Origin: a virus
DNA: 64,000 bases
IMG/VR virus record: IMGVR_UViG_3300015374_000004
Coordinates: 5,787 to 69,786 of that record
Reading direction: 5' to 3' (one strand)
In this document: in pieces, positions 4,799 to 30,760 of the stretch
How the letters are laid out: every line of letters begins with the position of its first letter
How positions within the stretch are numbered: the first letter of the stretch is position 1
Notes under the pieces: generated by a model
What the model was told of the DNA's origin: nothing
The model's database searches: none
The model's input: the letters and a program-made list of their open reading frames with translations, nothing else
Position numbers and translations under genes: made by a program

Positions 4799-5256
4799 GC
4801 ATCATGTCCCCCGAGGAGACCCTCGCCTTCGAGAAGCGGGCCTTCCTGGAGAAGGTCAAGGACGGCGTGCCCCGCGTCCATGCGGCCATGGAACTCGGCT
4901 GGTCGCTGCGCAAGTTGGAGCGGCTGCTCCGGGAGCAGGACTTCCTGGAGATGGTCACCGACGTCGAGCAGTACGAGATCGCCGAGGTCGAGATGGTCCT
5001 CCGGGACAAGGCCAAGGCCGGGGCCATGGACGCCATCAAGATGTACCTGCTGAACAAGGCGCCCGAGCGGTGGTCGGAGCGCCGTGAGGTCAACGTCACC
5101 GGCACCTCGGCCGTGATCGTGGCTCACGTCGATGCCACCAGGAGCGCGCTGCGGGAACTGCTGGAGGATCCGTCCGCCAGAGATGCAGCCATCGCTGCGC
5201 TCATGCCCGGCGGTGTGATCGACGCGGAGGTGATCGAGGATGACGACAGCACTTGA
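4795..5256 (+). CDS. terminase small subunit
   Basis: About 153 aa. Shows the helical N-terminal and 'MYLLNKAPERW' features of actinophage TerS. Sits immediately upstream of TerL and overlaps it. Confidence 0.55.
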   Translation: MSIMSPEETLAFEKRAFLEKVKDGVPRVHAAMELGWSLRKLERLLREQDFLEMVTDVEQYEIAEVEMVLRDKAKAGAMDAIKMYLLNKAPERWSERREVNVTGTSAVIVAHVDATRSALRELLEDPSARDAAIAALMPGGVIDAEVIEDDDST

Positions 5257-6757
5257 TCCCAAGGATCAGGTGCGCCTGAGCCACATGGCTCTGCCGTCCC
5301 GCCTCGCCCAGTACGTCAGCAAGGATCTGTTCGGGTTCGAGTGGATTCCCGCGCCGCACATCGCCTACATGGAGCAGCGCGTGCTGGCCAACGTGCTGGA
5401 GCCGAAGAAGACGTTCATCTCCATCTCGATGCCGCCCCGCCACGGCAAGAGCCTGTACTGCTCAGCCGCGCTGGCAGCCTGGTTCCTGGGGATGTACCCC
5501 GAGAAGAACGTCATCCTCGTCACGTACTCGGAGGACTACGCCCTGCGGTACGGCCGTCTGGTGCGTGACATCCTCGCTCGCTACGGCAAGGAGTTGTTCG
5601 GCCGCTCGGTGAGCCGAGGCGCCAACTCGGTGACCGACTGGCAGATGGAGCGATCCCTCGGCGGGATGCTCTCCGTGGGTGTCGGGGGTGGTATCACCGG
5701 GCGTGGTGGTGACCTCATCATCATCGACGACCTGATCAAGAACCAGCAGGAGGCGCGGTCCAACGCCACCAAGTTGTTCCACAAGACAGAGTACGACGCC
5801 TCGATCCGCACCCGGTTGGAGACCGGCGGCACGATCGTTGCAGTCGCTACCCGGTGGGCGATGGACGACCTGCCCGGCCGCTGGCGAGAGATGGACGAGG
5901 CCGGTGACCAGTGGGAGTTCGTCGACTTCCCCTGCATCGCCGAGTGCCCCAAGGACGAAGACCCTGAGATCTGGCGAGATGAACTGGGTCGCAAGGACGG
6001 CGACGCTCTGTGGCCCGCGCGCCTGCCGGTCGAGGAGGCCATGAAGACGAAGGCGTCCATCGAGGAACTCGTGTGGGCCGCCATGTACCAGCAGGATCCC
6101 TCGACCCTGCAGACGGCCATGTTCCCGGCCGACAAGTGGGGCACCTACCCCTGGTACCAGCGCGACGAGGTGATGAAGAAGTGCGTGCGCTTCGTCCGAG
6201 CCTGGGACTTGGCAGCGTCCGAGGAGTCGGGCGACTGGACGGTGGGCGTGTGGATGGGGATGGGCTGGGATGGCCGCATCTACGTCCTCGACGTAGACCG
6301 CTTCCGCTCCGGCCCCACTGAGGTCGAGAACCGGGTGCTCAAGCGGGCCGAGGAGGATGGCGTCAAGACCCACGTCATCATCGAGCAAGAGAAGGCTGGC
6401 TCAGGCAAGACGGTGGTCGCCCACTACGCCCGCGTGCTGATGAACCGTGTGGTCGAGGCGATCCCGGTGACCGGCTCGAAGGATGAGCGCGCCATGATCT
6501 ACGCGGGCAAGATGGGCGCCGGGTTAGTGCTGATCCCCGACGAGATCCACTGGCGCAAGGAGTGGGTCGACGAGCACAAGTTGTTCGGCCGCATCAAGAC
6601 CGACGACCAGGTTGACGCCGCGGCCCACGGCTTCAACTACTTGGCGGACCAGGGCGGCGTGGCGAGGATCTGGTCTCCGGCCGAGATCCCCCTCAACTTC
6701 CACGCCGAGGAGCAACTACGTGCTCTCCTGGAACGAGGGGTGGTGGTGCGGCGCTAG
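5240..6757 (+). CDS. terminase large subunit
   Basis: 505 aa. Walker A-like 'SMPPRHGKS', an ATPase domain and a C-terminal nuclease domain with acidic residues. RBS GGAGGTGA. Confidence 0.8.
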   Translation: MTTALDPKDQVRLSHMALPSRLAQYVSKDLFGFEWIPAPHIAYMEQRVLANVLEPKKTFISISMPPRHGKSLYCSAALAAWFLGMYPEKNVILVTYSEDYALRYGRLVRDILARYGKELFGRSVSRGANSVTDWQMERSLGGMLSVGVGGGITGRGGDLIIIDDLIKNQQEARSNATKLFHKTEYDASIRTRLETGGTIVAVATRWAMDDLPGRWREMDEAGDQWEFVDFPCIAECPKDEDPEIWRDELGRKDGDALWPARLPVEEAMKTKASIEELVWAAMYQQDPSTLQTAMFPADKWGTYPWYQRDEVMKKCVRFVRAWDLAASEESGDWTVGVWMGMGWDGRIYVLDVDRFRSGPTEVENRVLKRAEEDGVKTHVIIEQEKAGSGKTVVAHYARVLMNRVVEAIPVTGSKDERAMIYAGKMGAGLVLIPDEIHWRKEWVDEHKLFGRIKTDDQVDAAAHGFNYLADQGGVARIWSPAEIPLNFHAEEQLRALLERGVVVRR

Positions 6758-9533: not shown

Positions 9534-11111
9534 TTAGAGGTTGCCCAGCGAGAACTCGCTGACCAGCCCCGGCGTGGAGCCGTCGAGGCCCACCAGGTCG
9601 AGGTGGGTGGCGTCGGTCGGATCGGCGATGGTGTACCGGTTCGCGTTCATGGCCACGAACGCCGTCCGAGCGTCGATGCCGGACGTCTCCTTGTAGGCGC
9701 GGAGCGCCTGGTGCGTGTGGATGTCGCCAGCCCACGTCTCGTTGTCCGTCAGGAAGACGAACGTGTCCACGTTCAGGTGCTCCTGCGTGGCCCACAGCAC
9801 CGGGAGGCTGGCGTCGGTCCCGCCACCACCGACCCGAGCGGCGAGCAACGCCTCACGGAGCGAGGACTTCGGGCTCATCGCCAACGGGTACAGCGAGCGG
9901 TCGTAGCCGACCACGGCGCAGTGCTCCTCGGTGGCCAGGGTCACCAGACCCATCGCAGCCCCAGCCTCGCGGCAGGAGATCGGGCTTCCGATGACGTGGT
10001 TGTTCATGGACCCCGACACGTCCAGGCAGATCAGCGTCCGCTTGCCGGACGGCTTGACGGTCTGGAAGGCCAAGGTGAAAGCCTCACCGAGCGCGTCCAC
10101 GATCTTGCCCTCGGGCACCCAGGTCTTGCCGGAGCGGTAGCCCCCGCCAGAACCGTAGACAGCCGAGGCCAGGAGGAACTGCATCGGGTGGACGCGGCCC
10201 CTCTTGATCACGTCGACGTCGGTGAGCCGCTCCACGACCCGCTTCGTGGTGTCGGAGAACGGCGCGATGAGGCCCACCGTGGTCATGGTGGCGAGGTTGC
10301 GCACCATGGCCGTGATCGGCATGTCTTCGAGCAGCGCCTCCCACACAGCGGGCGAGCGCAGCGCCTCGGAAGGCACGGCCTCTCGGGGCAGGCGGTACTG
10401 GCGGATGGCCGAAGCCACCGTCAGATCGTCAGCACCCTTGGACATCTCGAAGCCACGGATGACGTCGGGCAGGTTGCCGTCAGGCGTCTTGCCGACCACC
10501 CAGGCGAGGACGTCGTTGACGCCTCCCTTGGCCACCTCGGGGTGAGCGAGGCGCAGAAGGTCACGCTGAGCCCAGCCGTCTCGCGACTGGTACTTGACCA
10601 TCTGGTAGGCGAGGTTGTCGCTGGTCTTGCCCTCGTACCACCGGGCCACGGCGCGCCGTAGGCCCCGGCCCCAACCCCTGAACTGCTCGACGTAACTCGC
10701 GAACATGAGCAGATGGGAGCCGGTACGGCACACCGTGGCGATGGCGGCCTCGCCAGCCCGGCGGGTGACGGGGTCAGCCGCACCGCAGCAGGCAGCGAGA
10801 GCGAACAGGGTGGCGTTCTGCTTGGGCGCCAGACCCAGTTCGCTGACCAAGGCCAGTTCACGGACAACGCGAGGCCCGTCCGCAGCGATGCAGCGGAGCA
10901 GGACGGTGGCGTTCTCCTTGGTGAGATCGCGCTCGGAGATGTAGGCGGTGCCCCCATCCGTGCCGAGGACCAGGAACCGGCGAAGCCGCATCCAGTCGCT
11001 CGACTCGAAGACGAACCCACCGGCCGTGTTCTGCACCATGTCGGTGCGGGTGGGGTCGGGCTCGCTCTGAGGGGTGGCACGCGTCCCGAAGGCGCGCAGG
11101 GGATCAGTCAT
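9534..11111 (-). CDS. rsr: Ro60-like RNA-binding protein (TROVE domain plus C-terminal vWA with MIDAS)
   Basis: About 525 aa. Helical-repeat TROVE region and a vWA 'LICLDVSGSMN' DxSxS motif. RBS GGAGG 9 nt before the ATG at 11111. Confidence 0.8.
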   Translation of the reverse strand: MTDPLRAFGTRATPQSEPDPTRTDMVQNTAGGFVFESSDWMRLRRFLVLGTDGGTAYISERDLTKENATVLLRCIAADGPRVVRELALVSELGLAPKQNATLFALAACCGAADPVTRRAGEAAIATVCRTGSHLLMFASYVEQFRGWGRGLRRAVARWYEGKTSDNLAYQMVKYQSRDGWAQRDLLRLAHPEVAKGGVNDVLAWVVGKTPDGNLPDVIRGFEMSKGADDLTVASAIRQYRLPREAVPSEALRSPAVWEALLEDMPITAMVRNLATMTTVGLIAPFSDTTKRVVERLTDVDVIKRGRVHPMQFLLASAVYGSGGGYRSGKTWVPEGKIVDALGEAFTLAFQTVKPSGKRTLICLDVSGSMNNHVIGSPISCREAGAAMGLVTLATEEHCAVVGYDRSLYPLAMSPKSSLREALLAARVGGGGTDASLPVLWATQEHLNVDTFVFLTDNETWAGDIHTHQALRAYKETSGIDARTAFVAMNANRYTIADPTDATHLDLVGLDGSTPGLVSEFSLGNL

Positions 11112-11169
11112 GTGGATGTTGCCTCCAGTCAAGTGGTTGACGTCCCGACCAGTTGCATCGAGAACAGGA

Positions 11170-11424
11170 CGCCTCCGGCCCGGAGGGCCAGATCTAACGA
11201 TGCGGTCAAGTGAGTGGTCCGGGGGTCGACCACGGCGAACCGTGGCGGCGGGATTTGAACACCGCTCACTTCTTGCGAAGCGTCATCCAGAGGTAACCCG
11301 AGCCTGTCGGCCCGCATCTATGTCGATGGTCGGATGGTCAAGGGTTGGCTGCGGGAACTGGTTTCATCCAGAGTGAAAGGTAACCCGCTGCCTTCGGCCC
11401 ATCCGAAGTTCTGAGGGACAGTAT
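11170..11424 (-). ncRNA. candidate Y-RNA-like (Yrl) structured ncRNA(s) between tRNA-Cys and rsr
   Basis: Non-coding 325-bp gap upstream of rsr on the same strand. Contains a T-arm-like 'GGTGTTCAAATCCCGCC', a UUCG-tetraloop hairpin (CCACGG-TTCG-CCGTGG), a cloverleaf-like closing stem AAGTGAG/CTCACTT, three copies of 'ACTCACT(T/G)GACC' and a duplicated 'CGGGTTACCT..CTGGATGA' module. Flanked by a TATACT -10 and a GC hairpin. Confidence 0.35.
11172..11187 (-). terminator. GC hairpin (CCTCCGG/CCGGAGG) downstream of the structured RNA and upstream of rsr
   Basis: Inverted repeat followed on the minus strand by CGTCCTGTTCTCG. Confidence 0.3.
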
Positions 11425-11457
11425 ACTGGAGACTGCTCACCGGTCCAGTGAGTTTCG

Positions 11458-11528
11458 AGGGGTGGGCCGGACTCGAACCGGCGTAGTCCGCTTTGCAGGC
11501 GGACGTCTAGCCACTCGACCACCACCCC
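11458..11528 (-). tRNA. tRNA-Cys (anticodon GCA)
   Basis: Minus strand 5'-GGGGTGG..TCCGC-CTGCAAA-GCGGA..GCCGG-TTCGAGT-CCGGC-CCACCCC-T. 7-bp acceptor, anticodon loop CUGCAAA, T-loop TTCGAGT. 71 nt, no encoded CCA. Confidence 0.8.
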
Positions 11529-11533
11529 GGTAG

Positions 11534-11998
11534 TCAGCCGTGAAAGGTTGCCCAGGCCCCGTACCCCGCACGGCTCCACACGTCGTACGCAGCGTTGGCG
11601 CACGCCTGCGGGTCGTAGAGCAGGTCGTACATGGACGCCTGGATGATCCCCAGCGCCAGGAGCCGCTTCTGGTGGGCGGTCCTGTTGATCTGCCACCAGC
11701 AGAAGTCATGCGTCGGCGAGACGGCCGTGAGCGTGTCCTGGGACTCCCGCCAGCAGAGCGCCGACATGACGGCCCACTGGCTCCGGGCGAACCCGGCATC
11801 CCGGAAGTATGGGTAGGCATCGGCACATGGCCGCCCGGCCGTGTCCTCAGCCTCCTCCGCGTTGAACTGGGCGACGACCTCATCGACCTTCTCTTGGCCG
11901 ATGATAGGAAGCCACTCGAAGTACCTGTTCATCTGGTTGAACGTGCAGGATGAGCAGGTCAGCACGATCACGAAGGCTGCAGCGATTGCTCGCTTCAT
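11534..11998 (-). CDS. lysozyme-like / SLT-domain lipoprotein (peptidoglycan hydrolase candidate)
   Basis: Signal peptide plus lipobox 'VLTCSSC'. 'CWRESQ...FCWWQIN' resembles the SLT/lysozyme-like E-S...Q motifs. RBS TAAGGAGAGGAAC. Confidence 0.5.
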   Translation of the reverse strand: MKRAIAAAFVIVLTCSSCTFNQMNRYFEWLPIIGQEKVDEVVAQFNAEEAEDTAGRPCADAYPYFRDAGFARSQWAVMSALCWRESQDTLTAVSPTHDFCWWQINRTAHQKRLLALGIIQASMYDLLYDPQACANAAYDVWSRAGYGAWATFHG

Positions 11999-12762: not shown

Positions 12763-13021
12763 CCTCCTCTCCTACTCCAGCAAGGCGGTTGGCGAGTGCC
12801 TCCCAGCGGTCCCAGACCTCCCAGGGCATTCGGCCCATCACCTTGATTGCGACGTCGTCGGCGCGCCAGGCGGTCATGCCGCCCCTGCGCCACTTGAGGT
12901 AGGTGCCACGAGCCACGCCGCAGATGGCGCCCTTCGTGGCGTCGGACGTGGCCTCTGGATGGTGGACTCGTAGCCACAACTCCAGAGGCTCCACGTCGAG
13001 ATGGTCGTCAACTGTCGTCAT
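12743..13021 (-). CDS. hypothetical protein
   Basis: The start 'MTTVDDH' overlaps the amidoligase stop. Confidence 0.4.
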   Translation of the reverse strand: MTTVDDHLDVEPLELWLRVHHPEATSDATKGAICGVARGTYLKWRRGGMTAWRADDVAIKVMGRMPWEVWDRWEALANRLAGVGEEDETDGH

Positions 13022-14390
13022 CGAGGAGACTCCATTCGTCGGTGTCATCGAGGTAGGCCGACTCCTCCCTCAGTCGGGGCGGGATGGGTGGCGGTCTTGA
13101 CGGCGTGCGTCGCAACCGCCTGGCCTCTTGCGCGGGGTTCAACGGTGGTCGGTTCCGCCGCCGTGGGCCGCTCCCGTTCTCGTCCCAGGCGACCTGCCAC
13201 TCCATCTCCCGGAGCAGGCGCTCGGCGCGCTCCTGTTCGATGGTCGTGGCCGTGCCGTGGAGCCACTGGTTGACGTCGTCGGTGTGTACCGACGACAGGC
13301 GTTCGGTCTGCTCCAGTTCCCGGTCAGTCTCGGTCTGCTCGACCCACTGCCAGCGGGCGGTCGGGATCTCGGCCGACTCGATGTGCCACCAGGAATCGGT
13401 GCGCCGTGGCGTCACCACCAGGCCGTCCCCCAGGTCCACGGCCACGCCGAGATCGTGGGCAGTGGTCGCGGCCTCGTAGTCGAGGTCGTCCTGCTCGCTC
13501 CATTCCTGGAGCGAGTGCGTCGGCAGCCAGGGAGTCGTGTCCCGGAAGTGCAGATGGCGCCGCACCAGTTCGGCGGCGATCGGATCGTGGGCCTCGATGT
13601 AGAGCAGGGCCGCGTCACGATCGACGCTGTAGCCCTCCGACGTGCGGCCGATGCCGTCGTCGTACCACTGGTTGCCGGTGAGCAGGAAGTCCTTCGACCA
13701 CTCGGACACCTCCTGGACGAAGTCGTGCTGCGTGAACAGCACCGAGAGCCGGGCGAACATCTCCATGCGCCAGGCGGATCGGGTGGCGTTCCATGCTCGG
13801 AACTCCGGCCGGTTGTCTGACCGGGTCAGGTTCAGCGTGACGTGGCGGTCGTTGTGCCGGATCCACGTCGCCGTCTCCGACAGGCTCCACCGCTCATCGA
13901 CGGTGTTCGGCATGTAGGAGCGGAGCATCGTGGAGATCTTGTAGTTCCCACCGCCCCGGAACACGGCCAGCGGGCCGGTGACCACCTCGCTCAGCAGCCA
14001 GTCCTCGAAGGGCAGCCACGTGAACAGCAGGTCGGTGCTGCGTGGCAGCCGCTCGTTGACCTCGCCCCAGTCACCCGAGACGTGGACGTGGAAGCCAGCC
14101 CTGGAGTCGATCTCGGCGTCGCACTCGACCAAGACGTCCTGGAGGGTCTGCATGGCGACCCTGGCCTCCTCCCAGGACGTGAACGGGCAGGAGATGATCT
14201 CTCCGGCGCACGTCGAGTCGGACTGAGCGTGGAACAGCCAGTCACCACCTGGATCGCAGAACTCGCAGTCGCAGTGGTAGTGGTGGAGGTGGTCCATCCC
14301 CGCGAGCCCTCTCTCGTTGAGGACGCGGACGACGGCCTGTGCCTCGGAGCCCAACTCGGCCTCAAAGCCGAAGGCTCGGTTCAGTGTCAT
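13008..14390 (-). CDS. amidoligase (glutamine synthetase-like COOH-NH2 ligase, Amidoligase_2-like) with a Cys-rich insert
   Basis: The N-terminal 'AFGFEAELGSE' two-Glu strand is typical of GCS2/GS-like ligases, followed by 'HYHCDCEFCD' and 'HVHVSGDWG'. Paralogous to 16323-17258. ATGA-coupled to the upstream gene. Confidence 0.55.
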   Translation of the reverse strand: MTLNRAFGFEAELGSEAQAVVRVLNERGLAGMDHLHHYHCDCEFCDPGGDWLFHAQSDSTCAGEIISCPFTSWEEARVAMQTLQDVLVECDAEIDSRAGFHVHVSGDWGEVNERLPRSTDLLFTWLPFEDWLLSEVVTGPLAVFRGGGNYKISTMLRSYMPNTVDERWSLSETATWIRHNDRHVTLNLTRSDNRPEFRAWNATRSAWRMEMFARLSVLFTQHDFVQEVSEWSKDFLLTGNQWYDDGIGRTSEGYSVDRDAALLYIEAHDPIAAELVRRHLHFRDTTPWLPTHSLQEWSEQDDLDYEAATTAHDLGVAVDLGDGLVVTPRRTDSWWHIESAEIPTARWQWVEQTETDRELEQTERLSSVHTDDVNQWLHGTATTIEQERAERLLREMEWQVAWDENGSGPRRRNRPPLNPAQEARRLRRTPSRPPPIPPRLREESAYLDDTDEWSLLDDDS

Positions 14391-14920
14391 GGCATCACCC
14401 CGTAGGCGTGTAGGTAGTCGGACTGGATGCGCTCGGCGAACATCGTCCACTCGCCGACCTCGGCGGCGTGCCAGCCGCCGTTCATCGTGACGGACGCCTT
14501 GATGACGAGGCCCACCTTCTCCTCATGGTCGAGACGGAAGTCAGCGACCGGAGCGAACCGAGGCTCGTTCACGTCGCCCAACCTCGCCCAGATGAGCAGG
14601 CGGTTCTCGACCGCACGCACCTCGTCCAGGGCTTCCAGCAGCGCCTTGCTGCGCGCCCTGGGCGAGACGTACGGGATCAGGAGGGCGGCGGTGTCCCGCC
14701 AGCGGTGGAGTCGGAAGGCCATGGTGTAGCCCCCGAACTTGCGTTCGGTCACCTCGTCGTAGGAGGTGGGCTCACCCACCACGGCGACTCGGTAGGGCGT
14801 GCGGGTGGCGACGTCCAACTCCACGAAGTTCGGGAGGTAGGACCGCAACGTGCCTGTGTCACAGAGCCTCGTCACGGCCACCATCTCGTCCGCGTTGTCG
14901 TTGTGGTTCAGCCAGCGCAT
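14387..14920 (-). CDS. hypothetical protein embedded in the amidoligase cluster
   Basis: 177 aa, ATGA-coupled on both sides. No recognisable motif. Confidence 0.45.
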   Translation of the reverse strand: MRWLNHNDNADEMVAVTRLCDTGTLRSYLPNFVELDVATRTPYRVAVVGEPTSYDEVTERKFGGYTMAFRLHRWRDTAALLIPYVSPRARSKALLEALDEVRAVENRLLIWARLGDVNEPRFAPVADFRLDHEEKVGLVIKASVTMNGGWHAAEVGEWTMFAERIQSDYLHAYGVMP

Positions 14921-14921
14921 G

Positions 14922-16265
14922 TCACTCCCTTGCTCCGGCGGGTAGTTCCAGGAGGCCGCCCTCGATGAGTTCGAGGCGGCGCTCGAAGTAGGCGCCGAGA
15001 TCTTCCTCGTCGTTGGGCTCCAACGTGTCGGAGATCACGATGATCTCGTCGTCGGCGGCGTCGTCAGGATGGGTCAACCCCTGCAGGTGCTCGGTGATGG
15101 CTGCGGCGTCGGCGGCCTGCTCGGCGTCGTAGTTGTCCACGGTGATGACCCTGGACAGGTCAGCCACCTTGTCGAGACCGTCGCACTGGATGTACCTGGT
15201 GGACAGCCTGTCGATGGGGACGACCACGTCGTCGACGACGGTGTAAGGGTCCAGCGAGATCATCACCGTCGCCAGCACTCGGCCGACATCGGTGATGATG
15301 CCGGGGAGCGGATCACGCCGCATCCCGTCGTCGCCCTTGTGGGGACGGAACCAGATCTTGTTCCCGACCACGAGGTCGTCCTCGCTGATCGGCTTGTCGT
15401 TGGCCAGGACGCTCTTCGGCTCGTCGGCCGGTTTCGTGGCCGAGGTGGTGCCTCGGTTCCACTCGATCCAGTCGTCGTCGTCGTGGCTCCAACCGCCAGC
15501 GGTGTAGGTGCTGGTGTAGGAGCGGCGGGTGTAGCCCCACGTGTCGGGGATCTCGAACTTGTCCCAGAGGAGGAAGTCGAACGTGTCCCCGTTGTACGAG
15601 CCGATGAAGCCTTCCTCGGCTTCCTCGGGCTTCGTGTCGGTCGGCTCGTTCAGGTAGATGAGACCTGCCTGGACAGCGCCAGGAGTCGAGCCGAACATGA
15701 GTGAGCCGTTCTGGCTCATGGCGTAGCAGAGGGGCGAGCCCTCGCCGCGAGCCATGTTGAGCACCAGAGGCTCTCGGACGTCGATCCACGCCGTCGCCAT
15801 GTGACCCTCGATGAGGCCCAGGGCCTCCTTCGGATCTTCGACGTTGGCCAGGGCAGCGAAGATCGCCTCGGAGTCAACCTCGGCGTACTGCGGCCACCGC
15901 TTGGCGGCGAACAAGCGCTTGTCGTTGTTCACCCACCCGTTGTGGATGCCGATGATGTGACCCGACTGGACCGGATGGTTGTTCCGGTTCACCAGCGGGT
16001 CGCCCTGAGTCGCCAGTCGGGTGTGGATGAGGGCCAAGCGAGCGCCCTCTCCGATTCCCGGCCTGCTGTCGAAGAACTGGCCCGCGGCAACGGGGGCCTT
16101 CGACAACTTGACTCGACCGCTCGCTGACACCCGAACGACGCCTGTGGCGTCGCGGCCTCGATGCTCGATCGAGAGGCCCATCGTGCGCACCATCCTTGCG
16201 ATGCGCGACGGGTCGAGGTCGGCGTAGTCGAGCGGCGACAGGACAAAGCCTGCGATTCCGCACAT
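14922..16265 (-). CDS. class II (Ntn) glutamine amidotransferase domain protein with an acidic C-terminal domain
   Basis: 'MCGIAGFV' places the nucleophile Cys at position 2, so the start must be at 16265 rather than the upstream Met. 'GIHNGWVNN' also present. Confidence 0.65.
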   Translation of the reverse strand: MCGIAGFVLSPLDYADLDPSRIARMVRTMGLSIEHRGRDATGVVRVSASGRVKLSKAPVAAGQFFDSRPGIGEGARLALIHTRLATQGDPLVNRNNHPVQSGHIIGIHNGWVNNDKRLFAAKRWPQYAEVDSEAIFAALANVEDPKEALGLIEGHMATAWIDVREPLVLNMARGEGSPLCYAMSQNGSLMFGSTPGAVQAGLIYLNEPTDTKPEEAEEGFIGSYNGDTFDFLLWDKFEIPDTWGYTRRSYTSTYTAGGWSHDDDDWIEWNRGTTSATKPADEPKSVLANDKPISEDDLVVGNKIWFRPHKGDDGMRRDPLPGIITDVGRVLATVMISLDPYTVVDDVVVPIDRLSTRYIQCDGLDKVADLSRVITVDNYDAEQAADAAAITEHLQGLTHPDDAADDEIIVISDTLEPNDEEDLGAYFERRLELIEGGLLELPAGARE

Positions 16266-16322
16266 GTGTTCTATGTGCCTCACTTTCTGCGGGATCCACC
16301 CGCGGTAGGACACGTGTCCGTG

Positions 16323-17258
16323 TCAGAGGGAGTTCTGGACCAAGTCCATCAACTTGGCCTCGTGGGTCTGCGAGCCGGGAACCCGGTCGTCGAGGAACAG
16401 CGCCACCTCGCTGAATGCCCGCCTCGGGCGGCCAGCGCGTACGACCTTCTGTGCCTCGCCCACCGTGATGTCGCCGTGCCGGTCGTGCATGAGTGATGCC
16501 CAGCGGGTCATCGCCAGGCTCATGTTGACGTGGAACGGGATCCACCCGGACTCGCGGGGCGAGTTCCAGATCCGGTACTCGACCGTGGCGTTGCGGGGCG
16601 ACACCCAGGAGGAACCGTTGTGGTACTCCCGGAGCGCCTGCGACGCGCCCCAGACGTTGGTCTCGTCGGGGCGGCCGTTGTAGTACCGGACCTCATCGCC
16701 TCCACCGGCACCCACCTTGAGCCACTGCTCGCGGAACGTGCCCATGTGCAGGCCGGTCCACCGGCCGATCGCCCGGCGATCGCTCGCCCCCACGTGGATG
16801 TGGTTGCCAGCGTCACGCCCGACGCGGTGCCAGTTGGATGCGTCGGCGATGTGGGAGAACTGGGCGTCGAACTCGGCCAACTCCTCCATGTCGGAGGGGC
16901 TGGTCACCCGCAGGATGCGGGAGACGAACTCCGCCGAGACGGTGCAGTCCTCCTGGGCTGCGAACAGCCCGAAGTCGCGGTCGTAGTCGCACAGGCTGCA
17001 GTCGCAGTGGTAGGCGTGGAGACGGCCGCAGCGGTCGCTGTAGCAGTCGCACGTGCCGTTGCAGCACGAGCAGTCGTCCTCGCCGCACCCGCAGTTGTCG
17101 TAACCACAGGTGTTCCGCGAGTAGCCATCGGCGAAGTCGGGGTCGACGAACCCGAGCCGCATCATCTCGGATACGGCCGTGTCCGCGTCACCGATCATCT
17201 CCAGTTCGATGCCGAACGCCGGGGTGTCAACCCGGACGTCTTGCGCGGTCTTTGCCAT
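16323..17258 (-). CDS. amidoligase paralog (GS-like COOH-NH2 ligase) with an extended Cys-rich insert
   Basis: 'AFGIELEMIGDAD', Cys cluster 'CGCGEDDCSCCNGTCDCYSDRCGRLHAYHCDCSLCD' and 'HIHVG'. Start carries the conserved GAGAGGAGGTGA motif. Confidence 0.55.
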   Translation of the reverse strand: MAKTAQDVRVDTPAFGIELEMIGDADTAVSEMMRLGFVDPDFADGYSRNTCGYDNCGCGEDDCSCCNGTCDCYSDRCGRLHAYHCDCSLCDYDRDFGLFAAQEDCTVSAEFVSRILRVTSPSDMEELAEFDAQFSHIADASNWHRVGRDAGNHIHVGASDRRAIGRWTGLHMGTFREQWLKVGAGGGDEVRYYNGRPDETNVWGASQALREYHNGSSWVSPRNATVEYRIWNSPRESGWIPFHVNMSLAMTRWASLMHDRHGDITVGEAQKVVRAGRPRRAFSEVALFLDDRVPGSQTHEAKLMDLVQNSL

Positions 17259-17305: not shown

Positions 17306-17869
17306 CTACATGTAGGCGACGATGGCGGCGAAGTTGCCCGCAGCGACCAGTTCGTCTGCTCGCTGGGTGGCCAGGTGCAGGACGGCGAAGTTCGCCACGT
17401 CCAAGGCGTCGGTGCCCGCCAGGTTGGCGGCCCGATCACGGAGGTTGGCGACGAAGTCGCGTGCCCGCTGCTCGTCGGAGTCGTTGCACGACTCCTCGAA
17501 GATCTCGGTCACGACGGCGTTCGTCATCCAGCGGGTCAGGTCGGACCAGTTGTAGTTCCTGGTCGAATCCAGGATCTTCACGATGGTCAGATCGACCAGC
17601 CCTTCGCTGTGCTCGTAGCCAGGCGTCACGACCATGGAGACCATGAAGCCGTGCGACTCCCAGGTCGTGCCCAGGCGTGTCGCGTCGACGTAGCCAGCCA
17701 CGTCGCGGCCGCTGTTGGGATACAGCGACTCACGGCTCTGCCGTGTGCGCAGAGCGCTCGCGGTGGCCTTGACGGTCCAGCCGAACACGCTGTCGTGATC
17801 GAGGGTGGTGTTGTACCCCCAGGCGCACGAGCCGACCGTGACGGAGTCGTACTCGGTCAGATAGATCAT
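17306..17869 (-). CDS. hypothetical protein
   Basis: Conserved start motif GAGAGGAGGTGAGAACATATG. Confidence 0.45.
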   Translation of the reverse strand: MIYLTEYDSVTVGSCAWGYNTTLDHDSVFGWTVKATASALRTRQSRESLYPNSGRDVAGYVDATRLGTTWESHGFMVSMVVTPGYEHSEGLVDLTIVKILDSTRNYNWSDLTRWMTNAVVTEIFEESCNDSDEQRARDFVANLRDRAANLAGTDALDVANFAVLHLATQRADELVAAGNFAAIVAYM

Positions 17870-18128: not shown

Positions 18129-18494
18129 TCACCACGCCGTGGCGTCTGTGGCCACGATGTTGATCGCCTGAGCCCCCGCGGTGTTCTGCAGGGTGCCGAG
18201 GCGGAAGTTGTCCGTGCCGATGCCGGGCATGTTGCCCCGCCAGCAGTCGTCGACGGCGTTGGAGCCACCCATGAGCGGCCCACAGTTCTCGTGGACGAGG
18301 ATCAACTTCTGGCCCGGCAGACGGGTGCAGAGACCCGCGTTGTTGGTCAGGGCCACGATGGCCTTGCCATCCTGCGTCTGGCCACAGTAGGCCGGATCGT
18401 CGATCCGGGCATCCGGCTGAGGCGGCACGCAGGCTGCGACCACGGTGATCGCACTGCCGATGATGGCGGCGCGACCGAAGTTCTTGCGGTTCAT
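18129..18494 (-). CDS. secreted Cys-containing small protein
   Basis: Signal peptide 'MNRKNFGRAAIIGSAITVVAAC' and 6 Cys. Start motif GGGAGGTGAACATATG. Confidence 0.5.
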   Translation of the reverse strand: MNRKNFGRAAIIGSAITVVAACVPPQPDARIDDPAYCGQTQDGKAIVALTNNAGLCTRLPGQKLILVHENCGPLMGGSNAVDDCWRGNMPGIGTDNFRLGTLQNTAGAQAINIVATDATAW

Positions 18495-19899: not shown

Positions 19900-20300
19900 T
19901 GATCGACTGCCTCGCGAGCCCGACATACAGGCTTCCCTGGCGATTATCGGGAGGGGGGGGTGGGGGGGGCCACCATCATTTCTCTCCCCTGGGGGAAAGT
20001 CGATGGGGGGGCCGCTGTCGCGGCTTCCCACCCTCGACCTCAACTGGAGGTTTAGGGTGAACCTCGACGTCAACCTCGACTGCAGGTAGAGGGTTGCACT
20101 GGGCAGTGCCAGATTCGACCTCGACTGGAGGGTTAGGTTGAGGGTTCACTGAGAGTGAGGATTCTGACCACAGAGAGTGTGGGTCTCTCAGTGTGGTCAG
20201 CGAAGGTGACAACGAGCACTGAGAGTGAGAGTGAGTGTGAATCCTGGTCTCACTCTGTCCTGGCGTCCCGCGGCACTTCCCACCAGTACGGCGGCCGTGG
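19900..20300. repeat. repeat-rich non-coding strand-switch region (poly-G tracts, ~35-bp 'CGACCTCGACTGGAGGnTTAGG' direct repeats, 'CACTGAGAGTGAG' repeats, ~45-bp imperfect direct repeat at 19845 and 20250)
   Basis: Seen directly in the sequence. No ORF with coding bias. Confidence 0.6.
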
Positions 20301-20353
20301 CACTCTGGTGCTGGCGGCCGCCGTGGCCGCCCACGACAGACAGGACAGAGACC

Positions 20354-21826
20354 ATGACCCGACAGGACCCGAATCGGCTCTGGACGGCCGCCGCGCTCGC
20401 GGCGCTCGCTCAGGCCGACAGAGAGACAGACGCGTGGCTCGCTGACCACGACCCACAACCACCTACCGACCACCGCGGACTGACCGCCTACCGACTGCAG
20501 GGCGGCACGATCACCAGGACCCGGCCGGAGGTTGTGACGCCAGTGCTGACGCCAGCGCTGACGGACGACCAGGCCGACGCGCTGGTGGCCGCTGGTGGCT
20601 CGCTGGTGACGTGGAACGGCCGCACCTACGACGGCGCTCTGAGCGAGGCGCTGGGCACAGAGCCGTCGTTTGACTACGTGACCCAACACGCGACCACCCC
20701 CCACCGCGACCGCGGCGCGTTCACGCGGTGGCCGCTGGTCCGTGTCCGCCGTGTCGACCGTGACACTGGCGGCCGCACGTACGTCAGTGCGCTGGTGCCC
20801 GCGGCCGATGCGACCGTGGTGCAGCGCCGTGCGAGCGCCGTGCCGCTGGTGCTCACTGAGACACGGCCGCGGGTGGTCCGTCGCTCCGGCGTGGTGACCA
20901 TGCACAGCGAGCACAGCGGCCGCACGTACCGGCACGCGGTCAGCGTCACTGTCCGCGGACGGCGCGCCGTGGTGGACGGTACGGCGCCGTGGGTCAGCGA
21001 CCGCGTGGTCAGCGAGCTGCAGTCGCGGCGCCGTGGGCGGACCACCGCGAGGCGCTCGCTGGGATGGTGGAGCGAGTCCACCTACGCCGCGGGTCCAGAG
21101 AGCACCAGGACGGTCCTGGTGGCCGCCTACCGCGTGCAGAGCCACCGCGAGCACCGTGACAGCGGACAGCGGATCTACGGCGCTCTGAGCGCCGCTGACA
21201 GGCTCCACAGCGAGGCGCTGACAGTGTGCGAGGCGCTGCAGCGCACCTACGGCGCGGCGCCGCTGGTCGTGCGGAGCATCGGCGGGACCATCCTCCCGGC
21301 CGCCTACACGGCTGGGATGCTGGCGGCCGATGCGCTGCAGAGCGAGCCGTGGTCGGGTCCGGTGGCCGCACGCGACTGGACGGTCGCCGTGCCTGAGCGG
21401 ATCACGGTGGAGCGCACGATCCCAGCGCTTGACCTGACCCATCGCCCGGCCGACGCGACCGCCTGGCACCTACCGGAGCGGAGCCACGCGAGCACTGGCG
21501 TCGGCAGGACCGGCCGCCCGCCTGTCACGGACGCTGACGCGGTGGCAGTCCTGTCACCAGCGGCCGTGCGAGCACGGCTGACCAGTAGCCCAGAGGCGGC
21601 CGCCTGGTGCGCCCGCCTACTGCAGGCGACAGAGCGCGTCGCGGTCAGTCCTGGTGCCAGCGTCAAGGTGGGCGCTGGCGTCACGCTGACGTTCGACCCT
21701 ACGGCGCTAGACCAGGCGACAGCGCTGACGTTCACTGAGGCGGCCACCGGCCGGTCCTGGTCAGGATCCTGGCGTGGCCGCCGTGCGCTAGCCCAGCGTG
21801 CGGCCGTTGCAACGCTGACCCGGTAG
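20354..21826 (+). CDS. hypothetical protein (490 aa)
   Basis: Non-repetitive sequence with good codon bias. The upstream part of the listed ORF overlaps the repeat region, so the start is placed at the Met at 20354. Confidence 0.5.
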   Translation: MTRQDPNRLWTAAALAALAQADRETDAWLADHDPQPPTDHRGLTAYRLQGGTITRTRPEVVTPVLTPALTDDQADALVAAGGSLVTWNGRTYDGALSEALGTEPSFDYVTQHATTPHRDRGAFTRWPLVRVRRVDRDTGGRTYVSALVPAADATVVQRRASAVPLVLTETRPRVVRRSGVVTMHSEHSGRTYRHAVSVTVRGRRAVVDGTAPWVSDRVVSELQSRRRGRTTARRSLGWWSESTYAAGPESTRTVLVAAYRVQSHREHRDSGQRIYGALSAADRLHSEALTVCEALQRTYGAAPLVVRSIGGTILPAAYTAGMLAADALQSEPWSGPVAARDWTVAVPERITVERTIPALDLTHRPADATAWHLPERSHASTGVGRTGRPPVTDADAVAVLSPAAVRARLTSSPEAAAWCARLLQATERVAVSPGASVKVGAGVTLTFDPTALDQATALTFTEAATGRSWSGSWRGRRALAQRAAVATLTR

Positions 21827-25062: not shown

Positions 25063-25323
25063 TCAGCCTCGAACCCCTCTCATGAAGCCCTCGATGGCGG
25101 CCTTGGACATCTCCAACTGGGCCACGAAGCCCCAGGCGTCGATGTTCCCGTTCTTGTACTTGGTGGCAGCATCGTTCAACTCGGCGGTCACGTCCATGAC
25201 GGCCTCGCCGAACTGCTTGTTCTGCTGGTCGATGGTGCCGGTGAGCGGATACATGTTGATGTCACGCCCGTCTACAACCCGCTTGAGTTCAACGGAGCCC
25301 ACCACAGCCCTCCATCCCGGCAT
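25063..25323 (-). CDS. hypothetical protein
   Basis: 86 aa with coding bias. Confidence 0.4.
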   Translation of the reverse strand: MPGWRAVVGSVELKRVVDGRDINMYPLTGTIDQQNKQFGEAVMDVTAELNDAATKYKNGNIDAWGFVAQLEMSKAAIEGFMRGVRG

Positions 25324-25347
25324 ACGACATTCTCCCAGAAGATGTTG

Positions 25348-25515
25348 CTACTGCAACGGATGTTCGTCGGTCTCGTCCACACCCGCGACCGCCTCGGCGA
25401 TCCGGTGGGCGTTGAGCACTTCCCTGATGGCGGCGGCCTCGTACCACTTCCGGCGCCCACACAGGCGCTTGACGTAGGCCGACTCCTCCTCGTTGAGGTA
25501 CAGCGTGACGATCAT
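25348..25515 (-). CDS. ribbon-helix-helix regulator, probably expressed from a leaderless mRNA
   Basis: 'MIVTLYLNEEESAYVKRL...WYEAAAIREVL'. TATACT lies 6 nt upstream of the ATG. Divergent from the 25561 gene. Confidence 0.5.
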   Translation of the reverse strand: MIVTLYLNEEESAYVKRLCGRRKWYEAAAIREVLNAHRIAEAVAGVDETDEHPLQ

Positions 25516-25560
25516 GTAGCCAGTATACGGCGGTGTGCTGACTGGGTGTATCCTGGAGAC
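25516..25560. promoter_or_regulatory. divergent promoter/switch region (TATACT -10 for the leaderless RHH gene and RBS for the + gene)
   Basis: 45-bp gap between divergent starts containing the CAGTATAC palindrome. Confidence 0.4.
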
Positions 25561-25914
25561 ATGACCTGGCACATCCATTCACCACTGGGACGCTTCGGCG
25601 TCTCGGCACCCGGCGCCAAGCGCAAGCGTCAACTGGCCGAGAAGGAGCAGGAGCGACAGGAGTTGCTCGCCGACCTCCGGCAGAAGGCGTTCTTGGAGGC
25701 CACCCAGCCTCGGACCACCTACGTCCCCCTCACCGGCAACTCCGTCCTGTACCAGGGGCTCCACATCCAGCCCCTCCCTCCGTCGCACTCGAACGTGGTC
25801 CAGGAGTACCTCCGTCAGCATCACATGGAGTGGAAGGATCTGACGTCCGAGGATGCCCACCAGATCGTGGAGATCTACGCCCGCATGATCGCGGACGGCC
25901 ACGAGATCTCATAG
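25561..25914 (+). CDS. hypothetical protein
   Basis: Start 'MTWHIHSPLG'. 118 aa. Confidence 0.45.
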   Translation: MTWHIHSPLGRFGVSAPGAKRKRQLAEKEQERQELLADLRQKAFLEATQPRTTYVPLTGNSVLYQGLHIQPLPPSHSNVVQEYLRQHHMEWKDLTSEDAHQIVEIYARMIADGHEIS

Positions 25915-25922
25915 GAGGAGAC

Positions 25923-26135
25923 ATGGAGAACGAGACCATGAAGGCCGAGGCCGAGCCTCTCGACCTCAAGGAGGCCGCCCGGCGCGCCTCGGCGGCCGTT
26001 AAGGGCCTGAACGAGGTGGCGGGCGTGCGGCGCTCGAAGCACACCGGCTCGGTGGTCCCCCCGGACCTGCGCAAGCAGCGGAACCGAGCCAAGGCCAAGC
26101 GGGCCCGCGCCAGCCGGAAGATCAACCGTGGCTGA
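25923..26135 (+). CDS. small basic protein
   Basis: C-terminus 'RKQRNRAKAKRARASRKINRG'. Confidence 0.4.
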   Translation: MENETMKAEAEPLDLKEAARRASAAVKGLNEVAGVRRSKHTGSVVPPDLRKQRNRAKAKRARASRKINRG

Positions 26136-27093
26136 GGTCGTCTACCTCGGCAACTTCCAGCACGACCACTGCACCGAGGTCCACCTCGCCAGGGAGATGC
26201 AGGCCAACGGCCACCGGGTGAGCAAGGTCCAGGAGCCTCACGACGCCAACGAGCGGTTCGTGCGGCGCCTGGAGGCCAAGGTGTCGAACCTCAAGCCCGA
26301 CCTGTTCCTCTGGACGAGGACGTGGGGCCTGCCACCGATGGCGACCGACACGTGGCGACGGTTCGAGGAGAAGGGCATCACCACCGCCTCCTACCACCTC
26401 GACCTGTACCTGGGGCTCAAGCGGGCCGAGAAGATGCGCCGCGACCCGTTCTGGACGACCGGCTACGTCTTCACGCCGGACGGCAACGCCTCCAGCGAGC
26501 GCTACTTCCACTCCATGGGCATCAACCACTGGTTCATGCCGCCCGCGGTCGTCTCCGACGCCGTACATGAGGGCATCAGGATGCCTGAGTACGTCTCCCC
26601 GCTGGCCTTCGTCGGCTCGTGGAAGAACTACCACCCCGAGGAGTGGCCGTTCCGCCAGACGATGGTGCTGTGGCTCCAGAGGCGCTACCAGAGGGAGTTC
26701 GCCGCCTGGGGGGCCAACGGCCGGGGCACGATCCGTGAGGGCCACCTGAACGACCTGTACGCCTCGGTGAAGGTCGTGGTCGGCGACAACCTCTCCCTGC
26801 GGGGCAACACCCACTACATCTCCGACCGCTACTTCGAGACGCTGGGCCGCGGCGGCTTCCTGGTCGCCCCCTACGTCCAGATCCTCGACGAGTTGGGCTT
26901 CGTCCACGGCGAGAACATCTGGACGTATCGCTCGGCCGACCTGTCGGACCTGGAGTACCAGATCAAGGTCACCCTCGCCCTACCGCCCGAGCGGCGCAAG
27001 GAGATCGTCGCCAACGCCATGGCCTTGATCAAGGAGCGACACACGTACCGCCATCGCCTGCAGAAGGCGTTCGAGATCATGGGAGTGCAGTGA
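26128..27093 (+). CDS. glycosyltransferase (CgeB/DUF3880-like)
   Basis: 321 aa. The C-terminal 'YISDRYFETLGRGGFLVAPY' resembles the CgeB-type GT domain. First gene of the glycosylation cassette. Confidence 0.45.
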   Translation: MAEVVYLGNFQHDHCTEVHLAREMQANGHRVSKVQEPHDANERFVRRLEAKVSNLKPDLFLWTRTWGLPPMATDTWRRFEEKGITTASYHLDLYLGLKRAEKMRRDPFWTTGYVFTPDGNASSERYFHSMGINHWFMPPAVVSDAVHEGIRMPEYVSPLAFVGSWKNYHPEEWPFRQTMVLWLQRRYQREFAAWGANGRGTIREGHLNDLYASVKVVVGDNLSLRGNTHYISDRYFETLGRGGFLVAPYVQILDELGFVHGENIWTYRSADLSDLEYQIKVTLALPPERRKEIVANAMALIKERHTYRHRLQKAFEIMGVQ

Positions 27094-30471: not shown

Positions 30472-30475
30472 GGTA

Positions 30476-30760
30476 CTACCGCAGGTTGCGGAAGGGATCG
30501 GCGCCCAGATCGGGCATCGGACCGGTCCCGTTGGCCATCTTCGGTATCACCAGGCCGCCCCGGCGCCTCTGCAGCGCCTCGTAGAGCCACTGCTCCACGT
30601 TCTCCTCGAAGAAGTAGTGGGACTCCTGGGACTGGGTGTTGAAGATCAACACCCAGCGCTCCGTGCCGTCAGGGAGGGTTGCGGTGGCCTCCCTGACGGT
30701 GAACGGCACTGGTGCCGGTTGGACGATGGGGACGTTGTCCCCCGGCAACTGTGTGGTCAT
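30476..30760 (-). CDS. hypothetical protein
   Basis: 94 aa with coding bias. Confidence 0.4.
   Translation of the reverse strand: MTTQLPGDNVPIVQPAPVPFTVREATATLPDGTERWVLIFNTQSQESHYFFEENVEQWLYEALQRRRGGLVIPKMANGTGPMPDLGADPFRNLR

Follow-up and report, generated by a model that had tools for sequence, protein, structure and literature searches.

Gene content and organization of the cassette

The 64,000-nucleotide stretch of DNA analysed here (the window) comes from an uncultured actinobacterial phage, and it carries a cassette in which two amide-bond ligases with zinc motifs lie around a glutamine-splitting enzyme. Four genes, all on the minus strand and in the same orientation, exactly fill positions 13008-17258 (Table 1); the gene calls in the source assemblies are identical (311, 447, 177, and 460 amino acids), and third-position GC of the four genes is 0.85-0.91. 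A megablast search of the 4.25-kb region against 50,697 phage records gave no match.

Table 1. Genes and sequence features of the cassette and its surroundings
Feature	Position in window	Strand	Description
putative lipoprotein gene	18494..18129		flanks cassette
gX187	17306..17869	minus	187 aa; upstream of ligB, co-oriented
ligB	17258..16323	minus	311 aa; predicted Amidoligase_2-type carboxylate-amine ligase, divergent; upstream member of triad
ligB Cys-rich insert (residues 51-78, 9 Cys)	17025..17108	minus	variable zinc-ribbon-like module, ligB-type subfamily
ligB HAYHCDCSLC (residues 81-90)	16989..17018	minus	clade motif HxYHCxCxxC; presumed zinc site
GAT	16265..14922	minus	447 aa; class-II (Ntn, Cys1) glutamine amidotransferase
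p177	14920..14387	minus	177 aa; adjoins GAT and ligA
ligA	14390..13008	minus	460 aa; predicted Amidoligase_2-type ligase
lipoprotein-like SLT_3 gene	11998..11534		lysozyme-like protein; flanks cassette

An earlier note had described all four genes as translationally coupled. This is correct for three junctions, in which genes abut or overlap (the GAT/p177 junction is TGAcATG, p177 and ligA share an ATGA overlap, and ligA overlaps the next gene), but ligB stands apart, as 57 nt separate its stop codon from the start of GAT, which has its own ribosome-binding site. The most likely start of ligA is the ATG at 14390, because there it overlaps the stop codon of p177 as ATGA and because all homologues start 3-8 residues before the FGFE motif; the length of 480 residues given earlier came from a GTG at 14450.

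The cassette lies in a non-structural block, on the strand opposite to the virion structural genes, where Erf, RecE-like, Ro60, and WhiB genes are also present.

The glutamine amidotransferase

The GAT protein begins with MCGIAG and so has Cys at position 2, as had been read from the sequence before; the ATG TGC codons (16265..16260) lie behind a GTGAGG ribosome-binding site. All GAT homologues share this N-terminus, and four of them start at ATT or ATC. A possible start at GTG 16313 was rejected; it would add 16 residues before the catalytic Cys, and the homologues and source gene calls all begin at M/I-C-G.

The glutaminase domain comprises residues 1-240 (window 15546-16265) and matches Pfam GATase_6 with 60.8 bits (threshold 27) and GATase_7 with 28.7 bits (threshold 25). 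In the AF2 model this domain has a pLDDT of about 97, and its best Foldseek match is the GlmS glutaminase domain (1xff, E 3.9e-15). The equivalents of GlmS Arg26, Arg73, Thr76, Asn98, Gly99, and Asp123 are conserved, and judged by these residues the glutamine (gamma-glutamyl) binding pocket is intact. Pfam, model, and pocket residues all agree with the identification of the middle gene as a class-II amidotransferase. The C-terminal half (14925-15545) is acidic and variable and has no predicted structure (pLDDT below 50). No fused synthase domain was found; residues 245-447 have no family match and are not alignable among homologues, save for a short recurrent "GDxV...G.V" stretch that is putatively beta-barrel-like or SH3-like.

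The two ligases and their clade

LigA and ligB are paralogues by BLASTP (E 6e-7), and their families align with each other in hhalign at 99.6% (E 1.9e-24). LigA contains FGFEAEL (residues 7-13), HHYHCDCEFC (36-45), FHVHV (100-104), and EFRAWN; ligB contains FGIELEM (15-21) and NHIHV (152-156). The earlier reading of two paralogous glutamine-synthetase-fold COOH-NH2 ligases with FGFEAEL or FGIELEM strands and an HxH is supported. The metal/phosphate-binding residues (GxExE, E, HxH, R, and ExR) are kept in both proteins on the central sheet, and the active-site residues are invariant in alignments A1, A2, A3, and A6, where they lie on predicted strands 14-21, 99-113, 151-157, and 225-232.

The ligA catalytic domain comprises residues 1-230 (window 13701-14390) and is followed by a non-conserved extension whose tail is basic and then acidic. 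Full-length ligA does not match Pfam Amidoligase_2 (PF12224), and residues 1-230 alone do (E 4.9e-5, 23.8 bits; cut-off 22 bits), as do all six members of the ligA family (best 3.9e-10); in hhalign the family reaches 97% to the classical phage amidoligases. LigB scores 12.9 bits (E 0.1) against the same model, below the 22-bit gathering threshold, and seven of the 11 members of its family match at E<=0.1 (best 4.2e-5). In the wider clade 30 of 44 members match at E<=0.01, and PF14395 (COOH-NH2_lig) matches neither ligase and none of the 44. The ligB model has a glutamine-synthetase/glutamate-cysteine-ligase-like fold and its nearest structures are gamma-glutamylcysteine ligases; the fold of ligA is predicted from profile evidence. 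HMM, profile, and fold evidence support membership of both proteins in the glutamine-synthetase-like Amidoligase_2 lineage; the ligA domain and its relatives match Amidoligase_2, and neither ligase is assigned to an unrelated fold. They are predicted to be carboxylate-amine ligases of ATP-dependent type with the glutamine-synthetase/glutamate-cysteine-ligase fold.

Both ligases had also been said to carry unusual Cys-rich inserts. These segments are real, but HxYHCxCxxC is not idiosyncratic: it marks the clade as a whole, was found in 123 of the 152 relatives examined, and is invariant in alignments A1, A2, and A6, and it probably binds zinc. The Cys cluster noticed in the second paralogue is likewise real, with nine Cys in 28 residues of ligB, and falls within a low-confidence part of the model (residues 46-91); CxxC...CxxC segments occupy its position in homologues, one of which matches Pfam DnaJ_CXXCXGXG. 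Overall, the genes and motifs first described are borne out, and the length of ligA, the extent of coupling, and the label "insert" are corrected.

The clade comprises about 866 relatives at 50% clustering. Searches with ligA and ligB by tblastn found no match in 50,697 phage records, so it was not found among cultured phages, nor did two pattern scans find relatives in 185,579 species genomes. The full-length ligases gave nothing significant against Pfam and PHROGs, NCBIfam had no match for them or for p177, gX187, or p92, and a PDB sequence search with the ligases returned nothing meaningful. The clade, which always occurs as a pair of paralogous ligases on either side of GAT, appears to be restricted to uncultured, mostly high-GC phages, and most of it escapes the Pfam and PHROG models now available.

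Conservation of the cassette in other viral lineages

The gene order ligB, GAT, ligA recurs in about ten independent uncultured viral or metagenomic lineages, the triad being kept in loci L001, L006/L021/L032, L007, L008/L023, L010/L026, L018 (GC 46%), and L031. Conservation of the gene set as a unit, expected of all four genes, therefore applies to the triad and not to p177, which is absent or replaced elsewhere. The GAT and ligA genes abut or overlap in L006 and L010; gene order alone is uninformative as to which ligase, if any, partners GAT.

GGCT/AIG2-like genes lie beside the related cassettes L008, L018, and L028, and also beside the classical amidoligase-GAT pairs of Arthrobacter phages. 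An HMM built from four GGCT sequences finds the gene in L008/L009, L012, L013, and L018, and that of L028 was found by tblastn. The same HMM found no GGCT in six-frame translations of the window, and none was found in L001, L006, L007, or L010.

Possible function of the three enzymes

We favour, tentatively and with a little less than even confidence, a phage-encoded three-enzyme module that forms amide bonds. Each ligase would convert a carboxylate to an acyl-phosphate and then join it to an amine, and two successive ligations would therefore build or decorate one product. GAT would form a gamma-glutamyl thioester on Cys1 and pass the glutamine amide nitrogen to one of the ligases, most likely ligA, as the ligA gene abuts or overlaps that of GAT in relatives that have no intervening gene. 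The chemistry would probably involve a gamma-glutamyl-type amide, since gamma-glutamylcysteine ligases are the nearest match of the ligB model and GGCT has been added to related cassettes; because the window itself has no GGCT, this reading rests on the relatives. The acceptor might be a small molecule or a macromolecule. The place of the module in a non-structural block, opposite to the structural genes and among recombination genes, makes a role inside the infected cell more probable than one in the virion.

Class-II amidotransferases that genuinely pass on ammonia usually carry their synthase as a fused domain, and the stand-alone GAT may rather be a gamma-glutamyl amidohydrolase of the EgtC type. 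It is thus conceivable, if rather unlikely, that GAT is no ammonia donor at all: the ligases would attach a gamma-glutamyl group to an amine or, like gamma-glutamylcysteine ligases, make a gamma-glutamyl peptide, GAT would later remove or transfer the gamma-glutamyl group as EgtC does when ergothioneine is made, and the GGCT of relatives would release 5-oxoproline by cyclisation. The actinobacterial EgtA (GCS2) and EgtC pair is a precedent, and the lack of a fused synthase, the retention in GAT of the residues that hold the gamma-glutamyl alpha-amino and alpha-carboxylate groups, and the GGCT genes of related cassettes and Arthrobacter phages are all consistent with such a cycle. The match of GAT to the EgtC model is weak (E 2.7e-4; 20.4 bits, cut-off 218.65), but GAT fits the true amidotransferases GlmS (E 1.2e-10) and AsnB (6e-6) far better; GGCT is missing from the window and from four of the related loci, and the constant presence of two ligases would be left unexplained. 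With this cassette it can be asked more sharply whether GAT is a nitrogen donor or an enzyme that processes gamma-glutamyl amides.

A broader proposal, which we consider clearly unlikely, is a phage-restricted, zinc-dependent pathway that would modify a macromolecule with a new amide or gamma-glutamyl-type group for anti-defence or superinfection exclusion, with the hypervariable genes at the p177 position acting as targeting or substrate factors specific to each lineage. The candidate macromolecules here would be a DNA or RNA base, a wall precursor, or a protein, of the host cell or of the phage.

The p177 gene itself has no match in Pfam, PHROG, or NCBIfam and a single homologue (89% identity) among 5.8 billion proteins searched. 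Its position is empty in L006, L021, L032, and L010 and is filled by unrelated proteins in L001, L007, L008, and L018; BLAST and hhalign found no similarity of p177 to these counterparts, to the upstream gene families, to GGCT, or to the GAT C-terminus (probabilities below 3%). With one near-identical homologue and unrelated counterparts, p177 was rejected as a conserved fourth member of the cassette; it is a passenger or accessory gene peculiar to its lineage. Upstream of ligB, gX187 has its own strong ribosome-binding site and no family match; other, unrelated genes take its position in related cassettes, and it is at most a candidate member of the system.

Two paralogues with a hypervariable small gene between them, together with acidic C-terminal tails on GAT, ligA, and the L008 protein p279, recall protein tagging of the pupylation kind. 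In such a system the paralogues would be the equivalents of PafA and Dop, their target would be a small protein or an acidic C-terminal tail, and p177 and the proteins encoded at its position elsewhere would serve as substrates or adaptors. This seems most improbable, as several lineages have no gene at that place and those present in the others are not related to one another (hhalign probabilities below 3%), p177 ends in GVMP rather than a Pup-like Gly-Gly-Gln/Glu, and proteasome or Mpa-like genes are absent.

The genes around the cassette bear on two further possibilities. The putative lipoprotein and SLT_3 genes that flank it have homologues beside the cassette in L008/L009, and part of the literature attributes a role in the cell envelope to the amidoligase/GATase genes of phiEco32-type phages. 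The enzymes might accordingly act in the manner of MurT/GatD or LtsA and amidate or extend a carboxylate of a peptidoglycan precursor (D-iso-Glu or meso-DAP), so altering the wall during infection or excluding superinfecting phages. We regard this as very unlikely: the three enzymes have no Mur-ligase domain, signal peptide, or wall-binding domain, and the flanking genes, whose support is positional, are missing from most other cassettes.

Zinc-ribbon-like inserts are common among nucleic-acid-binding proteins, and Ro60, tRNA-Cys, and recombination genes lie near the cassette; both would suit a system in which a modified base of phage DNA, or an RNA, would receive an amino-acid-type substituent from the ligases and GAT, or have one amidated by them, as a means of evading restriction. 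In some viral contigs amidoligase and amidotransferase genes do co-occur with thymidine-hypermodification genes (PMC8989533). Such base hypermodification is nevertheless highly improbable here, for the expected partner genes were not found in the window or, by BLAST comparisons, in related loci; a Pfam scan of 45 + 17 window proteins, with which PHROG agrees, found no 5-hmU DNA kinase, aGPT-Pplase, dUMP/dCMP hydroxymethylase, TET/JBP, or tRNA-guanine-transglycosylase-like protein.

Comparison with known systems

Pupylation by PafA/Dop is recognised by a GGQ/GGE substrate and linkage to the proteasome or Mpa, and thymidine hypermodification clusters by 5-HMUDK and aGPT-Pplase with a hydroxymethylase or TET/JBP; the cassette lacks the former set and the window the latter. 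Gamma-glutamylcysteine ligases, YbdK (GCS2), and glutamine synthetase share 8-17% sequence identity with ligB, which is much smaller (311 aa) and has an HxYHCxCxxC motif and Cys-rich insert that they lack. In the EgtA/EgtC system of actinobacterial ergothioneine synthesis, too, a carboxylate-amine ligase of glutamine-synthetase fold is accompanied by a stand-alone Ntn Cys1 enzyme whose substrate is a gamma-glutamyl amide, but there is one ligase in that system rather than two, and EgtB, EgtD, and EgtE are absent from the window.

Phage gene pairs of Amidoligase_2 and class-II GATase were reportedly predicted by Iyer, Abhiman, Burroughs, and Aravind in 2009 (Mol Biosyst 5:1636). The cassette is a divergent version of that enzyme system; it has the same adjacency of the two families in a phage non-structural operon, and family, adjacency, and conservation support the match that the earlier note had proposed. 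Such genes are widespread, occurring in Pseudomonas, Vibrio, Arthrobacter, Mycobacterium, marine, and crAss-like phages. The literature searched treats the pairs as functionally uncharacterised, as the note had also stated, and to our knowledge neither substrate nor product is known seventeen years after the prediction.

In the early cluster of LUZ24/phiEco32-type Pseudomonas podophages, COOH-NH2_lig (PF14395), Amidoligase_2, GATase_6, and ATP-grasp genes lie together. Like the cassette, this cluster has two different glutamine-synthetase-like ligases and a class-II GAT in one early operon, and its GAT (about 450-490 aa) has a similarly long C-terminal extension and matches that of the cassette at E about 1e-12. 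On the other hand, the second ligase of the cassette is an Amidoligase_2-type paralogue and not a PF14395 protein, scans of window genes gave no ATP-grasp hit, and host phylum and gene order differ. A Planctomycete phage has an amidoligase-GAT-GGCT set, from which the window differs in having no GGCT.

The classical pairs of actinophages (Ottawa gp65/gp66 and Wheelbite gp93/gp94 of Arthrobacter, Marvin gp105/gp106 of Mycobacterium) are similar in that a glutamine-synthetase-fold amidoligase lies directly upstream of a stand-alone, MCG-initiated GATase_6 in a non-structural region; the GAT domains are 35-42% identical to that of the cassette, and the Marvin pair also has Cys-rich, zinc-ribbon-like add-ons. 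Marvin gp105 and gp106 are both annotated as glutamine amidotransferase domain proteins. The cassette differs in having two ligases, one on each side of GAT and both of the HxYHCxCxxC clade, where the classical amidoligases have YNH...W in place of YHCxCxxC, and in having no counterpart in the window of the GGCT-like Ottawa gp64 and Wheelbite gp92. The locus stands for a clade of its own that can be told by HxYHCxCxxC; its compact three-gene set is suited to heterologous reconstitution, and the cultured phages with a classical pair offer the easier experimental entry.

Gene organization of the cassette

The amidoligase cassette of the window is made up of four co-oriented minus-strand genes with high third-position GC. 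Two of them encode paralogous Amidoligase_2-type ligases, ligB and ligA, which lie on either side of a class-II glutamine amidotransferase gene (GAT), and the fourth encodes a 177-aa protein (p177) between GAT and ligA (see table). An identical locus with exactly the same gene calls is present in three independent assemblies. The earlier note gave ligA as 480 aa, but this figure stems from an upstream GTG codon that homologs do not use. The note also proposed that all four genes are translationally coupled; the TGAcATG junction of GAT and p177 and the ATGA overlap of p177 and ligA agree with this, but ligB and GAT are 57 nt apart and a separate ribosome-binding site precedes GAT. The ligA gene in turn overlaps the next small gene.

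Features of the window and of related loci (L-numbered contigs)
Feature	Position	Strand	Remarks
Cassette	17258 to 13008	-	four genes
ligB	17258..16323	-	311 aa
GAT	16265..14922	-	447 aa from ATG giving MCGIAG
p177	14920..14387	-	177 aa
ligA	14390..13008	-	460 aa
Large terminase	5240-6757	+	
Region compared with large terminase	39386-40894	+	
Ro60/TROVE gene	11132..9534		
tRNA-Cys and adjoining RNA	11328-11528	-	
Candidate Y-like RNA	11328-11406		
tRNA-Cys(GCA)	11457-11528	-	
SLT_3 protein	11534-11998	-	lipoprotein-like signal peptide (…VLTCSSC…)
Lipoprotein-like protein	18129-18494	-	lipoprotein-like signal peptide (…VVAAC…)
490-533-aa ORF	20225-21826	+	local GC 70%
Glycosylation-type cluster	~25300-30500		
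Glyco_trans_1_2	26128-27093		
GAT start, L001	11021		ATT
GAT start, L006	8710		ATT
GAT start, L007	1295		ATT
GAT start, L021	5537		ATC
Cys/His-rich proteins, L018	2509-3445		156 and 161 aa
RRSGIGTLL protein, L018	8945-9682		245 aa
CxxC-rich protein, L028	7801-8445		214 aa

The ligases

Full-length ligA and ligB give nothing significant against Pfam, PHROGs, NCBIfam or PDB sequences; the sole signal is 12.9 bits for ligB with Amidoligase_2, and only 12 word-sharing ligB homologs exist among 5.8 billion proteins. A profile of these 12 plus ligA recovers 866 proteins (E<=1e-3, searched against 1.84 billion representatives at 50% identity), and 30 of 44 sampled members match Pfam Amidoligase_2 (best 8.5e-11). 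Residues G16, E18, E20, H84, C85, C87, C90, Q102, D104, E110, G151, H153, H155, R191, E227, and R229 (ligB numbering) are invariant in this sample and lie on central-sheet strands of the ligB AlphaFold model (pLDDT 75.8, pTM 0.81), whose best matches among predicted viral structures are dozens of phage "amidoligase enzyme" proteins. The ligA catalytic domain alone scores 23.8 bits with Amidoligase_2 (threshold 22), and all six members of its family match that model. Profile-profile comparison pairs the ligA family with the ligB family at a probability of 99.6% (E 1.9e-24), and the classical amidoligases of cultured phages (Ottawa gp65, Wheelbite gp93, and Marvin gp105) match the ligA family at 97% and ligB at 69%; ligB is the more divergent paralog. 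The Pfam matches of the homolog set, the ligB fold, the ligA domain scan, and the profile comparisons together settle the assignment to Amidoligase_2 that had been proposed for both proteins. They are paralogous ligases of the glutamine synthetase/glutamate-cysteine ligase fold with intact active-site residues, and are predicted to be catalytically active.

The HYHCDCEFCD stretch, described earlier as an unusual Cys-rich insert, is indeed present, but it is a clade signature, HxYHCxCxxC, whose strict form occurs in 123 of 152 relatives (CxCxxC in 136 of 154 fetched proteins); classical amidoligases have YNH....W at this place. The signature lies at residues 30-45 in ligA-type proteins and 70-150 in ligB-type proteins, because in the latter a variable CxxC-rich insert precedes it. 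In the window ligB this insert has 9 Cys in 28 residues and lies in a low-confidence part of the AlphaFold model, and that of one homolog matches a DnaJ zinc-finger model; these cysteine features would probably bind zinc. Two small Cys/His-rich proteins precede the low-GC L018 cassette, and a protein with many CxxC pairs directly follows the single ligase of L028; Cys-rich partner proteins seem to be a recurrent theme.

The amidotransferase

GAT scores above threshold with both GATase_6 and GATase_7, and its N-terminal 240 residues (pLDDT ~97) superpose on the GlmS glutaminase domain, with equivalents of GlmS Arg26, Arg73, Thr76, Asn98, Gly99, and Asp123 kept. The earlier identification of a class-II amidotransferase with a MCGIAG start is upheld: GAT is a class-II glutaminase, its activity predicted, whose gamma-glutamyl/glutamine pocket is intact and to which no acceptor domain is fused. 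The main rival to its being an ammonia donor is that this stand-alone protein is an EgtC-like gamma-glutamyl amidohydrolase; its top family scores are with GlmS, AsnB, and PurF, and the EgtC match is weak. Residues 245-447 are acidic, are modeled only at low confidence (pLDDT below 50), and cannot be aligned across homologs, and a short GDxV...G.V stretch that recurs near the C-termini of the family is read as a putative small beta-barrel.

Four related GAT genes have no ATG, GTG, or TTG before the catalytic Cys codon and have ATT or ATC there; at the three ATT loci, for which the upstream sequence was read, a good ribosome-binding site precedes this codon by 7-10 nt. Translation of this enzyme, which needs Cys as its first mature residue, may thus start at a non-canonical codon.

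Conservation and distribution

Protein look-ups and pattern scans recovered related cassettes with the order ligB-type, GAT, ligA-type in L001 (an NCBI metagenome-assembled contig), in IMG/VR contigs of 42-70 kb (L006, L007, L008/L009, L010, and L018), and in metagenome contigs L021, L023, L026, L031, and L032. Pairwise identities are ~25-55%, and one cassette is from a 46% GC genome. Conservation as a unit, which the earlier note made a condition of its reading, holds for this order but not for p177, which has a single homolog (89% identical). No gene lies between GAT and ligA in L006, L021, L032, and L010, and the intervening proteins of L001 (160 aa), L007 (176 aa), L008/L023 (279/332 aa), and L018 (212 aa) show no recognizable similarity either to p177 or among themselves. 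What is conserved is thus a unit of three genes, ligB, GAT, and ligA, which are strictly co-inherited. No ligase of either type turned up in 50,697 cultured-phage records, nor did a pattern search find one in 185,579 species-representative genomes.

Genomic setting

The window (65-66% GC) is of phage origin and encodes a large terminase, portal, major head protein, Erf, RecE-like exonuclease, DnaB, WhiB, and a tape-measure-sized protein of 2012 aa. Its portal matches only actinophages, at <=28% identity; the source is therefore an actinobacterial phage with no near relative in culture. Some 32 kb, with minus-strand recombination and accessory blocks, separate the large terminase gene from the portal and head genes, which is an unusual arrangement in a siphovirus-like genome unless its ends are situated in that interval. 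A glycosylation-type cluster, which recalls the virion-glycosylation clusters of mycobacteriophages, includes a Glyco_trans_1_2 match; the protein set scanned with it has further GT1/GT2, Methyltransf_23, and PIG-L (de-N-acetylase) matches. A family search with the 490-533-aa ORF, which the source assemblies also call, gave no match.

A tRNA-Cys(GCA) gene (ARAGORN; Rfam 63.4 bits) lies between the SLT_3 and Ro60/TROVE genes. The sequence just downstream of it matches, below threshold, Y_RNA (19.7 bits, E 0.21) and a family of nematode stem-bulge sRNAs (28.4 bits, E 0.001), making this a candidate Y-like RNA adjoining a phage Ro60 ortholog. The lysozyme-like SLT_3 protein and a second minus-strand protein start with lipoprotein-like signal peptides. 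Homologs of the second and of the SLT_3 protein (47.9% and 33.8% identical, respectively) flank the L008/L009 cassette, but not those of other lineages.

Possible chemistry

The cassette would perform two ATP-dependent ligations within one pathway, with GAT giving glutamine-derived nitrogen to one ligase; ligA is the favored recipient because its gene abuts or overlaps GAT where no gene intervenes. The chemistry is probably of gamma-glutamyl type, given the glutamate-cysteine ligase-like fold and the association with gamma-glutamyl cyclotransferase (GGCT) genes. A GGCT-like gene (AIG2/GGCT-like, FVYGSL motif) adjoins the L008/L009 cassette, and others lie inside that of L018 and near the single HxYHCxCxxC ligase of L028. 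The L018 cassette is also followed by a protein whose RRSGIGTLL stretch resembles a GNAT acetyltransferase-fold motif.

Three further readings are weaker. Amidation of peptidoglycan precursors would fit the flanking lipoprotein and SLT_3 genes common to the window and L008, but these neighbors are all that points to it. DNA hypermodification is suggested by co-occurrence with hypermodification genes in other contigs (PMC8989533), but no kinase, pyrophosphorylase, hydroxymethylase, TET, or TGT gene was found in the window. Pupylation-like tagging would call for a Pup-like substrate, and none was found.

Comparison with known systems

Phage Amidoligase_2 and class-II GAT systems have reportedly been predicted since 2009, and SEA-PHAGES genomes routinely carry this annotation. 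The classical pairs of cultured phages (Ottawa gp65/gp66, Wheelbite gp93/gp94, and Marvin gp105/gp106) are no harder to test than the window locus. In Arthrobacter phages Ottawa and Wheelbite a GGCT-like gene lies upstream of the pair, and a Planctomycete phage is reported to have amidoligase, GATase, glutathione-synthase-like, and GGCT genes together (PMC10945688); LUZ24-like phages carry COOH-NH2_lig and Amidoligase_2 along with GATase and ATP-grasp (PMC3890496). No GGCT, ATP-grasp, or COOH-NH2_lig (PF14395) gene was found in the window. What is new is that its ligases belong to a separate HxYHCxCxxC clade, that current family models mostly miss this type of cassette, so far seen only in uncultured phages, and that GAT is flanked on each side by one copy of a duplicated ligase.
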